A DNA stretch of 64,000 bases from Escherichia coli (GTDB taxonomy: Bacteria; Pseudomonadota; Gammaproteobacteria; Enterobacterales; Enterobacteriaceae): NCBI RefSeq assembly GCF_030384885.1, contig NZ_CP128613.1; one strand, given 5' to 3'. The stretch's first letter is position 1. Each line of letters begins with the position of its first letter. Under the pieces are notes generated by a model. It worked only from the letters and a program-made list of their open reading frames with translations. It was not told the DNA's origin and did no database searches. Positions 46,277 through 56,088 of the stretch are shown here, piece by piece. Position numbers and translations under genes: made by a program.

Positions 46277-46656
<380 letters not shown>

Positions 46657-46657
46657 C

Positions 46658-47041
<384 letters not shown>

Positions 47042-47099
47042 ATTCTTCTCCCGAAAAAAAACAGGGCTTGCGCCCTGTTTCTTTAATACAGAGGATGTA

Positions 47100-47555
47100 T
47101 TAGTACTGATGAGCGGTCGCGTTGTTGCCAAAACCAACCTGAGTAACGTTTACGCTAGAGTTAGATGCAGTTTGATCAACTGCAGCACCGTTACCACCAC
47201 CAAACTGTTTAACAGTCATTTCAGAGTTTTTACCGTTCCACTGATCAAGAGTGGCACTGTTACCGAAGCCACGTTGGGTCAGATCGATTGAGCTGTCATC
47301 AGAGCCCTGACCAACATCTGCACCGTTACCGCCACCGTGCTGGGTAATCGTCAAGTCAGAGTTACGAGCATCAGTTTGCAGAGCAAGTGCAGAGTTACCA
47401 CCACCGTACTGGTAAATATTCAGCTCTGAATTTGGGCCGCTATTATTACCGCCACCGCCATGGTGACCACCACCGCCATACTGAGGAATAGAACCTGCCA
47501 GAGCGCTACCAGAGAATACGATTGCTGCAATTGCTGCTACTTTTAAAAGTTTCAT
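47100..47555 (-). CDS. csgA: major curlin subunit CsgA
   Basis: 151-aa ORF with signal peptide and five imperfect Gln/Asn/Gly-rich repeats. Confidence 0.97.
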   Translation of the reverse strand: MKLLKVAAIAAIVFSGSALAGSIPQYGGGGHHGGGGNNSGPNSELNIYQYGGGNSALALQTDARNSDLTITQHGGGNGADVGQGSDDSSIDLTQRGFGNSATLDQWNGKNSEMTVKQFGGGNGAAVDQTASNSSVNVTQVGFGNNATAHQY

Positions 47556-47595
47556 GTAAAACCCCCATCGGATTGATTTAAAAGTCGAATGGAAA

Positions 47596-48051
47596 TTAAC
47601 GTTGTGTCACGCGAATAGCCATTTGCGACTGTCTCTGCACTACAATTGCCGTTTTTTGAGTACCATACTGTGTAATATTTGCTTTATTACCAGAACCTTT
47701 CTGGATAATCATCGCAGTATTACCATAAGCACCTTGCGAAATACTGGCATCGTTGGCATTGCCCGCCTGATCAATATATGCAAGGTTATAATCTCCTGTC
47801 TGGTCAATCTTTGCCCGGTTGCTACTACCTTCTTGCGCAACAACCGCCAAAAGTTTTGAGCCTCCCTGCCGTAACTGAGCACTATTATTAGTCCCAGCTT
47901 GACCAATTATGGCTGCCTGATTAAATGAAGACTTACTCAATTCATTTACCGCGAAGTTATATTCTGAATTAGCTAAATCATAACCTGCTGCGGCTGCAAT
48001 CCCAGGCGCACCCAGTATTGTTAACATCATAAATAACAATTTGTTTTTCAT
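47596..48051 (-). CDS. csgB: curli nucleator CsgB
   Basis: ORF 47596..48078; start placed at MKNKLLFMMLTILGAPGIAAA to give 151 aa. Confidence 0.95.
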   Translation of the reverse strand: MKNKLLFMMLTILGAPGIAAAAGYDLANSEYNFAVNELSKSSFNQAAIIGQAGTNNSAQLRQGGSKLLAVVAQEGSSNRAKIDQTGDYNLAYIDQAGNANDASISQGAYGNTAMIIQKGSGNKANITQYGTQKTAIVVQRQSQMAIRVTQR

Positions 48052-48805
48052 GTTGTCACCCTGGACCTGGTCGTACATTTAAGAAATTAAATCATTTCAA
48101 CTTGGTTGTTAACGCAACCTGTATTTTGTTAACGCTGCGTTACGATGGAAAGTATGTCTGCGGAAATATTTTTAATAACTCACCCGCGCGTTGTATTTTT
48201 CTTTTTTTGTTCATACCAAAGTATTAAAACCCACGTAAATACGCTGTTATCTACGCAAAAAAATATTTTGTTTTCTTTTAAATTTCGGTTTTCCGCAATC
48301 AAAAATCACCAGACAGTCATTCTTCTTGCCCGTCGCTGATTGCTGCGATATGTCTTGCGCACAAGCCGTGACAAACCTCGTCTTTTTGCAGTAAAAAATT
48401 GTCCACGGAGGTGTGGAGAAAAAACAAGAACGTTTTACATGACGAAAGGACTACACCGAAATATTTTTTATATGCATTATTAGCAAGTTAGCACCATTTG
48501 TATGATTTTTTAAAATTGTGCAAGAAAAACCAAATGTACAACTTTTCTATCATTTCTAAACTTAATAAAACCTTAAGATTAACATTTTAATATAACGAGT
48601 TACATTTAGTTACATGTTTAACACTTGATTTAAGATTTGTAATGGCTAGATTGAAATCAGATGTAATCCATTAGTTTTATATTTTACCCATTTAGGGCTG
48701 ATTTATTACTACACACAGCAGTGCAACATCTGTCAGTACTTCTGGTGCTTCTATTTTAGAGGCAGCTGTCAGGTGTGCGATCAATAAAAAAAGCGGGGTT
48801 TCATC
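48052..48805. promoter_or_regulatory. csgBAC / csgDEFG divergent intergenic control region
   Basis: 754-bp AT-rich non-coding gap with no ORF of 60 codons or more; known to carry both curli promoters and the long csgD 5' UTR. Confidence 0.85.
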
Positions 48806-49456
<651 letters not shown>

Positions 49457-49460
49457 AGCC

Positions 49461-49850
49461 ATGAAACGTTATTTACGCTGGATTGTGGCGGCAGAATTCC
49501 TGTTCGCCGCAGGGAATCTTCACGCCGTTGAGGTAGAAGTCCCGGGCTTGTTAACTGACCATACTGTTTCATCTATTGGCCATGATTTTTACCGAGCCTT
49601 TAGTGATAAATGGGAAAGTGACTATACGGGTAACTTAACGATTAATGAAAGGCCCAGTGCACGATGGGGAAGTTGGATCACAATAACGGTCAATCAGGAC
49701 GTTATTTTCCAGACTTTTTTATTCCCGTTGAAAAGAGACTTCGAAAAAACTGTCGTCTTTGCACTGATTCAAACTGAAGAAGCACTAAATCGTCGCCAGA
49801 TAAATCAGGCGTTATTGAGTACGGGCGATTTGGCGCATGATGAATTCTAA
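49461..49850 (+). CDS. csgE: curli secretion specificity factor CsgE
   Basis: 129-aa ORF with signal peptide. Confidence 0.95.
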
Positions 49851-49874
49851 ATAAAAAATTGTTCGGAGGCTGCA

Positions 49875-50291
49875 ATGCGTGTCAAACATGCAGTAGTTCT
49901 ACTCATGCTTATTTCGCCTTTAAGTTGGGCTGGAACCATGACTTTCCAGTTCCGTAATCCAAACTTTGGTGGCAACCCAAATAATGGCGCTTTTTTATTA
50001 AATAGCGCCCAGGCACAGAACTCGTATAAAGATCCGAGCTATAACGATGACTTTGGTATTGAAACGCCATCAGCGTTAGATAACTTTACCCAGGCCATCC
50101 AGTCACAAATTTTAGGTGGGCTACTGTCGAATATTAATACCGGTAAACCGGGCCGCATGGTGACCAACGATTATATTGTCGATATCGCTAACCGCGATGG
50201 TCAATTGCAGTTGAATGTGACGGATCGCAAAACCGGACAAACCTCGACCATCCAGGTTTCGGGTTTACAAAATAACTCAACCGATTTTTAA
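49875..50291 (+). CDS. csgF: curli assembly protein CsgF
   Basis: 138-aa [41 protein letters not shown]. Confidence 0.95.
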
Positions 50292-50317
50292 GCCCCAGCT
50301 TCATAAGGAAAATAATC

Positions 50318-51151
50318 ATGCAGCGCTTATTTCTTTTGGTTGCCGTCATGTTACTGAGCGGATGCTTAACCGCCCCGCCTAAAGAAGCCGCCAGACCGAC
50401 ATTAATGCCTCGTGCTCAGAGCTACAAAGATTTGACCCATCTGCCAGCGCCGACGGGTAAGATCTTTGTTTCGGTATACAACATTCAGGACGAAACCGGG
50501 CAATTTAAACCCTACCCGGCAAGTAACTTCTCCACTGCTGTTCCGCAAAGCGCCACGGCAATGCTGGTCACGGCATTGAAAGATTCTCGCTGGTTTATAC
50601 CGCTGGAGCGCCAGGGCTTACAAAACCTGCTTAACGAGCGCAAGATTATTCGTGCAGCACAAGAAAACGGCACGGTTGCCATTAATAACCGAATCCCGCT
50701 GCAATCTTTAACGGCGGCAAATATCATGGTTGAAGGTTCGATTATCGGTTATGAAAGCAACGTTAAATCGGGCGGTGTTGGGGCAAGATATTTTGGGATC
50801 GGTGCAGACACGCAATACCAGCTCGATCAGATTGCCGTGAACCTGCGTGTCGTCAATGTGAGTACCGGTGAGATCCTCTCCTCGGTGAACACCAGTAAGA
50901 CGATACTTTCCTATGAAGTTCAGGCGGGGGTCTTCCGCTTTATTGACTACCAGCGCTTGCTGGAAGGGGAAGTAGGTTACACCTCGAACGAACCCGTTAT
51001 GCTGTGCCTGATGTCGGCTATCGAAACAGGCGTCATTTTCCTGATTAATGATGGTATCGACCGCGGTCTTTGGGATTTGCAGAACAAAGCAGAACGGCAG
51101 AATGACATTCTGGTGAAATACCGCCATATGTCGGTTCCACCGGAATCCTGA
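50318..51151 (+). CDS. csgG: curli secretion channel lipoprotein CsgG
   Basis: 277-aa ORF MQRLFLLVAVMLLSGCLTAPPKE (lipobox LSGC). Confidence 0.97.
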   Translation: MQRLFLLVAVMLLSGCLTAPPKEAARPTLMPRAQSYKDLTHLPAPTGKIFVSVYNIQDETGQFKPYPASNFSTAVPQSATAMLVTALKDSRWFIPLERQGLQNLLNERKIIRAAQENGTVAINNRIPLQSLTAANIMVEGSIIGYESNVKSGGVGARYFGIGADTQYQLDQIAVNLRVVNVSTGEILSSVNTSKTILSYEVQAGVFRFIDYQRLLEGEVGYTSNEPVMLCLMSAIETGVIFLINDGIDRGLWDLQNKAERQNDILVKYRHMSVPPES

Positions 51152-54338: not shown

Positions 54339-54426
54339 ACGACAATTTGGTGAGGTGTCCGAGTGGCTGAAGGAGCACGCCTGGAAAGTGTGTATACGGC
54401 AACGTATCGGGGGTTCGAATCCCCCC
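54339..54426 (+). tRNA. serX: tRNA-Ser (anticodon GGA)
   Basis: GGTGAGGTGTCCGAGTGGCTGAAGGAGCACGCCTGGAAAGTGTGTATACGGCAACGTATCGGGGGTTCGAATCCCCCCCTCACCGCCA: acceptor stem, long variable arm, GGTTCGAATCC T-loop and encoded CCA. Confidence 0.92.
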
Positions 54427-54527
54427 CTCACCGCCATCTTTAAAGAAGAGCTCGTACGAAAGTACGGGCTTTTTTTTCGTATATTGCACACACCGGGGGG
54501 ATGAGAAGCCCCGACAGGGGTTCGACA
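54408..54527 (+). repeat. direct repeat copy 1 (tRNA 3' end + terminator + about 70 bp)
   Basis: AATCCCCCCCTCACCGCCATCTTTAAAGAAGAGCTCGTACGAAAGTACGGGCTTTTTTTTCGTATATTGCACACACCGGGGGGATGAGAAGCCCCGACAGGGGTTCGACAACTGGCGACA. Confidence 0.9.
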
Positions 54528-54588
54528 ACTGGCGACAGCCAGTTGGACAGACCGTGAACGCAGTGAGCGGGCTGCCCGCAGGGCGAGC

Positions 54589-54707
54589 GAAGCGAGTCAA
54601 TCCCCCCCTCACCGCCATCTTTAAAGAAGAGCTCGTACGAAGGTACGGGCTTTTTTTTCGTATATTGCACACACCGGGGGATGAAAAGCCCCGACCGGGG
54701 TTCGACA
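54589..54707 (+). repeat. direct repeat copy 2 (about 96% identical to copy 1, 61-bp spacer between copies)
   Basis: Same sequence as copy 1 with four differences (GAAAGT to GAAGGT, one G fewer in the G-run, GAGAAG to GAAAAG, GACAGG to GACCGG). Confidence 0.9.
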
Positions 54708-54720
54708 ACTGGCGACAAAC

Positions 54721-56088
54721 TCAATCATCATCCTTGCAGTTGATAAGAATTTCTGCCTCTTTTACAACTATCTTATTACGTCCGGTTTCTTTCGCTTCAT
54801 ATAGTGCATTATCAGCCATTCGATAGATTTCATTCGGATTTAACGCACTTCCCTGAGTCACCACAGCGCCAATGCTAATCGTCACTTTTTGCGGTATGGC
54901 GTATTCAGGATTATCGCCTGTCAAACGCTCTACATTTGCCCTTATCCTTTCGGCTAAAACTTTCGCGCTTTCAGTATCGGTCTCCGTCAGCAAGACGCCA
55001 AACTCTTCGCCGCCAACGCGTGCTAAAAGGTCATTTGGTCGTATGCTTTTCCCAATGATGCTCACCACTGTTTTTATCACCTGATCGCCAACCGGATGCC
55101 CCCACGTATCGTTAACTTTTTTAAAGTGATCGATATCCATAATCATGACACAATAAGACGTTTTTTGGGCTGATGCTGATTGAGCCTTCAGTTCATTGAA
55201 AAAATAATTCCTGTTAAATATATTAGTTAATGGATCGCGATGGGCAATGTTCTTTGTTACTCGTAGCGCACTGAAAATATGGCACATAAATATTACCATA
55301 ACGGTTAATTTACTGACTACTTCAATAGTGCGGCTAATATACCAAGTGGACACACTATACCTGCTCATAAATAACAGAGAGATATTATACAGCACGGCAC
55401 AGAAAGCAATCACTGATACTCCATTCCAGATATCACAGCGTAAACCATTAAAGTATAGATTAACCAAAAGCAAGATTAACCACATGAAAATCATTATGGT
55501 AACATATGAGGTTTTCCAGACTACCTGACCATTTTCATTTGTTAACTCGGCAATATGTAAACTGTAGTCATCATAATGACTACTTAGCATGTGAGCAACT
55601 GCCGCCCCCCCAAAAATAAAAAATAGACTTATACACAATGTCATTTTTTTGGAAAAAAAACAGCGTTTCTTATTGTTTTCACTAACTTTATTCACCAGCG
55701 CTAGCAATATTAACATGCACAAACTCATCTGACGAAACAAATAATAAATTGCAATATCATTTTGTACAACGCTGCTTATCAAATGCCCCTCAATAAATTG
55801 CTGAATGATAATGACAGTTTTAACAAAGTAAATCAAACAACTCAGAAACGCTAAACTAAGTATGCAGTTTGAAAATTGGACACGATCATAAATGAAATAC
55901 AATTGCATGAAAATAAATGCAACGGTATCGATAAAAAATAAAGCAATCATAACCATTAGATAGGTTGATCGTGGAACAACCTCCTCAACGGTTGGCTGAT
56001 TAAACCAACTATTTACCAAAACGAATGCAAGCCCAAACAATAAGCTCACCAATACAGTACTACTAATTCCCAAATAGTCTTTTTCCAT
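54721..56088 (-). CDS. dgcT: diguanylate cyclase DgcT (YcdT), membrane MASE-type sensor + GGDEF
   Basis: ORF 54721..56178 (485 aa) with multi-TM N-terminal region and C-terminal GGEEF motif (RVGGEEFGVLL); start placed at internal MEKDYL. Confidence 0.85.
   Translation of the reverse strand: MEKDYLGISSTVLVSLLFGLAFVLVNSWFNQPTVEEVVPRSTYLMVMIALFFIDTVAFIFMQLYFIYDRVQFSNCILSLAFLSCLIYFVKTVIIIQQFIEGHLISSVVQNDIAIYYLFRQMSLCMLILLALVNKVSENNKKRCFFSKKMTLCISLFFIFGGAAVAHMLSSHYDDYSLHIAELTNENGQVVWKTSYVTIMIFMWLILLLVNLYFNGLRCDIWNGVSVIAFCAVLYNISLLFMSRYSVSTWYISRTIEVVSKLTVMVIFMCHIFSALRVTKNIAHRDPLTNIFNRNYFFNELKAQSASAQKTSYCVMIMDIDHFKKVNDTWGHPVGDQVIKTVVSIIGKSIRPNDLLARVGGEEFGVLLTETDTESAKVLAERIRANVERLTGDNPEYAIPQKVTISIGAVVTQGSALNPNEIYRMADNALYEAKETGRNKIVVKEAEILINCKDDD

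Follow-up and report, generated by a model that had tools for sequence, protein, structure and literature searches.

The csgA gene examined here raises the question of whether amino-acid changes near the N terminus of the curli major subunit CsgA are relevant to the function of the protein or simply represent a strain polymorphism. The gene was analysed within a window, by which we mean the whole stretch of 64,000 nucleotides of Escherichia coli contig NZ_CP128613.1 under study, and lies on the minus strand at 47100-47555 (151 codons and a stop codon). Its identification rests on the open reading frame list, on the NCBIfam CsgA equivalog profile NF007470 (240.8 bits over a cut-off of 160, with residues 1-151 aligned to profile positions 1-150), and on a 100% DNA match to csgA as annotated in strain 2013C-4282 (WP_000771423.1). 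The gene is placed in csgBAC and is divergent from csgDEFG, which is the architecture expected of CsgA. We found all parts of the protein to be present, including a signal peptide, the N22 secretion-targeting segment, and five imperfect repeats of the Ser-X5-Gln-X4-Asn-X5-Gln pattern, a consensus taken from PMC7217966. On the minus strand, the signal peptide (residues 1-20, MKLLKVAAIAAIVFSGSALA) occupies 47496-47555, N22 (mature residues 1-22) occupies 47430-47495, and the R1-R5 amyloid core (residues 43-151) occupies 47103-47429. Cleavage after Ala20 was taken from the mature numbering G1V2V3 in PMC6957492. Also on the minus strand, after the csgA stop codon, RNA folding revealed a hairpin followed by a U-run at 47055-47084 (-23.4 kcal/mol, z-score of -4.9, with 0 of 200 shuffles as stable), which probably is an intrinsic terminator between csgA and csgC; a simple consensus terminator scan did not list it.

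Direct comparison with the gene of K-12 MG1655 (NC_000913.3; locus L001, 19448-19903; protein NP_415560.1, b1042) revealed a protein alike in its length of 151 amino acids, its signal peptide, residues 32-151, and its position in csgBAC, with exactly three amino-acid changes, V22S, V23I, and N31H (V2S, V3I, and N11H in mature numbering). Residues 20-36 read AGSIPQYGGGGHHGGGG in the window and AGVVPQYGGGGNHGGGG in K-12 MG1655. The variant that the first-pass annotation had read from the letters is thus real, and the K-12 segment it had given for comparison proved correct when checked against the MG1655 gene, so that K-12 is indeed not identical at the N terminus. Codons 22-23 (47487-47492, minus strand) are TCT ATT, encoding Ser-Ile, where K-12 has GTT GTT, encoding Val-Val, and codon 31 (47463-47465, minus strand), in the glycine-rich linker, is CAC for His where K-12 has AAC for Asn. 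Conservation of the five amyloid repeats, also claimed in that annotation, was borne out, as residues 32-151 with the whole R1-R5 core are the same as in K-12. Its description of N22 as the secretion-targeting segment agrees with PMC6957492 and PMC7217966, and mapping of the substitutions onto this segment placed all three inside it. For three changes placed randomly over the 131 mature residues, the chance of all of them hitting N22 would be about 0.005, or (22/131)^3. Beyond what had been noted before, the CsgG-docking hexapeptide contains two of the three changes, and the synonymous sites of the allele show deep divergence.

The docking hexapeptide of the window CsgA is S-I-P-Q-Y-G (47475-47492, minus strand; V2V3P4Q5Y6G7 in K-12), with contacts to the CsgG crevice known from a cryo-EM analysis of CsgFG with the CsgA N22 peptide (PMC6957492). 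We recovered chain S of PDB 6L7C as this N22 peptide bound to CsgFG. Val3 fills a hydrophobic pocket of CsgG made up of I121, L172, L236, and W237, Gln5 hydrogen-bonds to CsgG, and Tyr6 stabilises a CsgG loop (PMC6957492). Congo-red binding was abolished by V3D and Q5A and reduced by Y6A, and the charged V3D, Q5A, and Y6A are the only damaging substitutions reported in that study (PMC6957492). The N22 peptide binds CsgG with a Kd of 0.53 uM (PMC7217966), and a Kd of 23.8 uM is reported for GVVPQY. V2S and V3I both lie within the hexapeptide, V3I at a key contact, and N31H lies outside it in the linker. V3I retains a beta-branched hydrophobic side chain, and V2S puts a polar residue into the docking peptide where K-12 has a hydrophobic one. 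In the literature searched, we found no mutant at mature position 2 and no experiment with Ile3. As far as the sequence can tell, the features on which docking depends are present, with a hydrophobic residue at position 3 (Ile3), Gln5, and an aromatic residue at position 6 (Tyr6).

The location of these changes allows an adaptive reading, in which Ser-Ile alters the affinity or kinetics of CsgA-CsgG docking and so tunes curli output, with the dimorphism being either maintained or swept. The placement of both changes among the six residues in the CsgG crevice, where Val3 is one of three key contacts, and the clustering of all three amino-acid differences from K-12 in N22 favour such a reading. 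We nevertheless regard it as improbable, as the change from Val to Ile is conservative and these two residues alternate among genera. The secretion machinery also argues against it. The csgDEFG operon (48806-51151, plus strand) has all genes intact, the window CsgE, CsgF, and CsgG proteins are the same as those of K-12, and CsgG T31, G32, I121, L172, L236, W237, and D238 are all present. The partner of the variant N terminus therefore carries no compensating change, and co-adaptation is not indicated, because carriers of Val-Val and of Ser-Ile have the same CsgG.

We next consider the states of these residues in other taxa, which were scanned at 55 csgA loci with one genome per species. All six non-coli Escherichia (E. 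albertii, E. whittamii, MOD1-EC7003, E69, SCPM-O-B-8794, and E1V33) have a mature N terminus of G-S-I-P-Q-Y/F, and G-S-I-P-Q was also found in several Enterobacter. Other combinations included G-A-V-P-Q in the Enterobacter cloacae group and G-S-V-P-Q in Kosakonia and Phytobacter. Most of the remaining genera surveyed carry V, S, A, L, or M at position 2 and V or I at position 3, and nearly all retain Gln5. The CsgA proteins of non-coli Escherichia thus share the N-terminal G-S-I-P-Q-Y with the window protein, but their genes have 88-92% nucleotide identity to that of the window, with a few core changes, and their linkers carry Asn-His in place of the His-His of the window. The exception is SCPM-O-B-8794, which combines S-I-P-Q-F with His-His. 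CsgA (AgfA) of Salmonella and Citrobacter has the same architecture, and several Citrobacter species also have His-His in this linker, but it differs in having Val-Val at positions 2-3. The protein identity to the window CsgA over the best aligned segment is 65-74% (76-81% for Citrobacter sp. R56, Awk 4, and NCU1). The N6 segment of Salmonella and most Citrobacter is G-V-V-P-Q-W, indicating natural variation of the position-6 aromatic residue and of the linker. E. albertii, in whose type strain we read Ser-Ile, includes Congo-red-positive, curli-producing strains (PMC11420993). Since sister Escherichia species normally carry these three residues, the window CsgA is most likely a natural variant that works in the ordinary way. 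The near fixation of Val-Val in E. coli beside Ser-Ile in its sister species could be cited for adaptive change at N6, and near-fixed Val-Val with rare Ser-Ile also fits Val-Val being favoured in E. coli.

At the DNA level, the window and K-12 csgA genes differ at 35 of 456 nt (92.3% identity), comprising 30 synonymous and 3 non-synonymous codons. The signal peptide has a single synonymous change, at 47511. Of the synonymous differences that lie beyond the signal peptide and N22, the R1-R5 core holds all except one. The dN/dS of 0.054 indicates strong purifying selection. Comparison of the surrounding DNA with K-12 revealed a single difference in the 456 nt of csgB, the curli nucleator gene (47596-48051, minus strand; S98N), four differences in the 333 nt of csgC, the curli chaperone gene (46709-47041, minus strand), and five in the 651 nt of csgD, within a background that is 97.5% identical over 27.7 kb. 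The divergent block ends at the csgA borders, as became apparent from strain N96, which differs from the window at 27 sites in 47127-47418 and at none across 47556-49500 or across 46586-47126. N96 CsgA (WP_000771422.1) is encoded by the same N-terminal DNA haplotype (Ser-Ile with His-His) and has the same flanks as the window, but the 3' two-thirds of its gene belong to another haplotype, in which these 27 nt differ and residues 110-112 are D-S-T rather than the N-S-E of the window. Separately, ymdA of N96 lacks 12 bp that are present in the window (equivalent to 46574-46585), an in-frame deletion.

Different parts of the window allele resemble different relatives. The first 77 nt, which include codons 22-23, are identical to those of E. 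albertii and E. whittamii; the 5' 200 nt differ from N96 at only two sites (gene positions 138 and 156); the middle of the gene resembles K-12-type and E69-type segments; and the 3' third has six private synonymous sites at gene positions 300-423. With one representative per species, we found no close donor for the whole allele, the best non-coli match being 91.9% (SCPM-O-B-8794). Import of the whole gene from a single Escherichia species was rejected, as no representative is closer than this and only the first 77 nt match E. albertii and E. whittamii. The allele is thus a mosaic, most likely an old recombinant haplotype and not the product of recent point mutation of a K-12-like gene, with a 5' end in the state of other Escherichia, set between an E. 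coli-typical csgB and csgC.

In strain 2020CK-00188, we observed a csgA of the window type save at both ends (equivalent to 47489-47492 and 47046-47157). The 5' end encodes Val-Val, and at the 3' end the difference extends into the csgA-csgC spacer, with nine differences at 47046-47098. These ends look like two further short recombination tracts.

We determined how widely the variant occurs. Of 5,426 complete E. coli genomes, three (2013C-4282, MFDS1022581, and MFDS1019527) have exactly this csgA DNA allele and four, the same three strains and N96, have the 101-nt N-terminal haplotype. Ser-Ile was encoded in 19 of these genomes and Val-Val in more than 99%. At least three genomes (2020CK-00188, 2017-02-2CC, and strain 35) combine Val-Val with His-His. 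In the public-assembly index, the window protein was found in 1,072 blocks and that of K-12 in 82,172. Although rare, the variant is thus recurrent, and it already has a RefSeq entry (WP_000771423.1). With regard to the suggestion that it might be common and neutral, its carriage by four of the 5,426 complete genomes shows that it is not common in E. coli, whereas Ser-Ile is standard in other Escherichia. As for the choice originally posed between functional relevance and strain polymorphism, the evidence favours polymorphism over functional relevance.

The remaining 15 Ser-Ile genomes, labelled E. coli, form the NT1F10 group, which encodes G-S-I-P-Q-F with His-His and comes mostly from pigs and pork. 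The csgB, csgA, and csgC genes of this group are 6-10% diverged from those of E. coli and match the separate species representative SCPM-O-B-8794. The group may be either a mislabelled cryptic lineage or the carrier of a large imported segment.

The carriers of WP_000771423.1 (2013C-4282, MFDS1022581, MFDS1019527, GCA_000190995.1, GCA_035824015.1, and GCA_030295195.1) share both the CsgA protein and the DNA allele with the window, with flanks that differ from it at 0-16 sites per 3 kb. The window is a near-perfect match to strain 2013C-4282 overall and is identical to GCA_000190995.1 and GCA_035824015.1 over the 3,456 nt around csgA. The identical DNA allele is thus present in at least six independent assemblies, one of which (L072) has 16 differences in the surrounding 3 kb. 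In Shigella, curli loci have decayed, with csg genes disrupted or truncated. Nothing was found in favour of a sequencing or assembly artefact in the window, or of decay of its curli locus as in Shigella, and both are scarcely conceivable, as the same allele recurs in several complete and draft assemblies of independent origin, each of the seven csg genes has its full length, CsgE, CsgF, and CsgG are the same as in K-12, and dN/dS is 0.05. We excluded both on the strength of the independent assemblies and the intact csg genes.

The divergence of csgA is not confined to the window. With the K-12 gene as query against the 5,426 complete E. coli genomes, csgA identity was at least 99% in 2,153 genomes, 95-99% in 1,118, 90-95% in 2,110, and 80-90% in one. 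The corresponding numbers for csgB were 5,350 (of 5,368 with a match), 3, 15, and 0, and those for csgC were 2,441, 2,929, 15, and 0. We then compared synonymous divergence among 12 E. coli alleles sampled over the csgA identity range. For csgA, mean dS was 0.24 within E. coli (maximum of 0.49) and 0.41 between species, a within/between ratio of 0.58. The ratio was 0.10 for csgB (0.013 within and 0.13 between), 0.04 for csgC (0.018 and 0.49), 0.06 for csgD (0.030 and 0.53), and 0.08 for ymdB (0.047 and 0.62). The between-species dS of csgB (47596-48051) is itself low, at 0.13 compared to 0.41-0.62 for csgA, csgC, csgD, and ymdB, which suggests either constraint on synonymous sites or recent gene flow.

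The allele sample behind the wider pattern was small, with 14 E. coli and 7 other sequences, which were picked by csgA similarity rank and not randomly. Of the 68 polymorphic E. coli csgA sites, 44 are polymorphic for the same bases among the non-coli species, compared to 3-9 sites shared across species in the genes flanking csgA. Only one fixed difference separates E. coli from non-coli csgA, and the four-gamete test indicated at least 20 recombination events. The csgA variants are grouped in linked blocks, and within the gene linkage disequilibrium falls off as sites lie further apart, a trend that 0 of 2,000 permutations equalled. Viewed across E. coli, csgA is both mosaic and highly polymorphic, and it has variants in common with other Escherichia.

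Such a pattern could in principle arise without recombination of old alleles, by local hypermutation of csgA (recurrent third-position C/T changes) or by conversion among its internal repeats. Most differences are indeed C/T transitions in the third base of Gly, Asn, and Ser codons, and recurrent mutation could mimic both the polymorphisms shared across species and the many four-gamete violations. However, csgA is invariant (0 differences) among carriers of the window allele, whose flanks vary at as many as 16 sites in 3 kb, the between-species dS of csgA is not above that of its neighbours except csgB, and the variants form linked blocks with decaying linkage. These three observations, of an invariant csgA with variable flanks, an unraised between-species dS, and block-linked polymorphisms, make hypermutation very unlikely. 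Within the window, a search for a donor of the six private synonymous sites yielded only chance 13-mers with one mismatch, and Tandem Repeats Finder detected no DNA-level tandem repeat in csgA, which also argues against both processes. Gene conversion among the internal repeats was dropped as a candidate due to the lack of a window donor and of a DNA-level repeat.

The csgA gene may keep or exchange old alleles across Escherichia, either through balancing or frequency-dependent selection acting on a fibre exposed at the cell surface or through a preference for short-tract recombination, beside a csgB that is near invariant, and Val-Val/Ser-Ile might tune secretion. We offer this possibility only tentatively, as we consider it less likely than not to hold. 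In that case, Val-Val/Ser-Ile would be one of the few amino-acid polymorphisms on such kept or exchanged csgA alleles. The excess of old polymorphism in csgA relative to its neighbours would likewise fit an adaptive N6, but this excess is almost wholly synonymous and spread along the entire gene instead of being centred on N22. In our literature search, whose coverage was incomplete, we found no paper on the DNA-level pattern of csgA diversity, recombination, or selection. CsgA protein variants are listed in PMC8767327, in which their functional effect is stated as unknown. Should selection on a surface amyloid lie behind the pattern, this would have implications for the interactions of hosts, phages, or neighbouring bacteria with curli. 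In our view, a mosaic, species-crossing polymorphism in csgA, 40 bp from a near-invariant csgB, is of more interest than the window variant and merits dedicated study.

Taken together, these analyses support a model in which the window carries, very probably, a functional, natural csgA allele in an intact curli locus, with near-neutral changes in N22 on an old recombinant haplotype. The variant itself is an ordinary, catalogued, and already known natural allele of a well-known gene. In this model, the window CsgA would be exported by Sec, cleaved after Ala20, and docked on CsgG via its hexapeptide S-I-P-Q-Y-G for subsequent secretion. Ile3 keeps the type of side chain that fills the CsgG pocket, and position 2 and the glycine-rich linker are free to vary among natural sequences, so that mature V2S, V3I, and N11H are most likely neutral or nearly so. 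Polymerisation like that of K-12 CsgA is expected because the amyloid core is identical in protein. We infer from these sequence comparisons that the window CsgA would be normally secreted and assembled into fibres. The variant would then indicate that the docking hexapeptide tolerates Ser-Ile in place of Val-Val, which may be useful for N22 secretion tags and for the design of CsgA-CsgG inhibitors.

We made several other observations in and around the locus. A match to the Rfam ES056 sRNA (119.7 bits) lies on the plus strand at 48659-48750, within the csgD leader and a short distance before the start codon of that gene. CsgD (48806-49456) has Pro19 and Ala110 and CsgC (46709-47041) has Ala3 and Met24 in the window, where K-12 has Ser19, Ser110, Thr3, and Val24. 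The window residues are common to every other E. coli sampled and to most other Escherichia, leaving K-12 as the odd one. The K-12 IS3D element, the ymdE pseudogene, and ycdU are absent from the window, with the gap near 54717-54764, and repeated rtT-like units with multiple BLAST matches to K-12 occupy 54418-54717 beside a tRNA-Ser gene (54349-54433). Finally, the GGDEF-domain gene dgcT (ycdT; 54720-56087, minus strand) is another deep, rare allele, with identity of at least 99% in 16 of the 5,426 genomes, 90-95% in 2,742, and 80-90% in 1,386, and with no match in approximately 1,270. With up to 49 differences per 400 nt relative to K-12, dgcT is more diverged than csgA, and csgA is thus not the sole divergent patch in the window.
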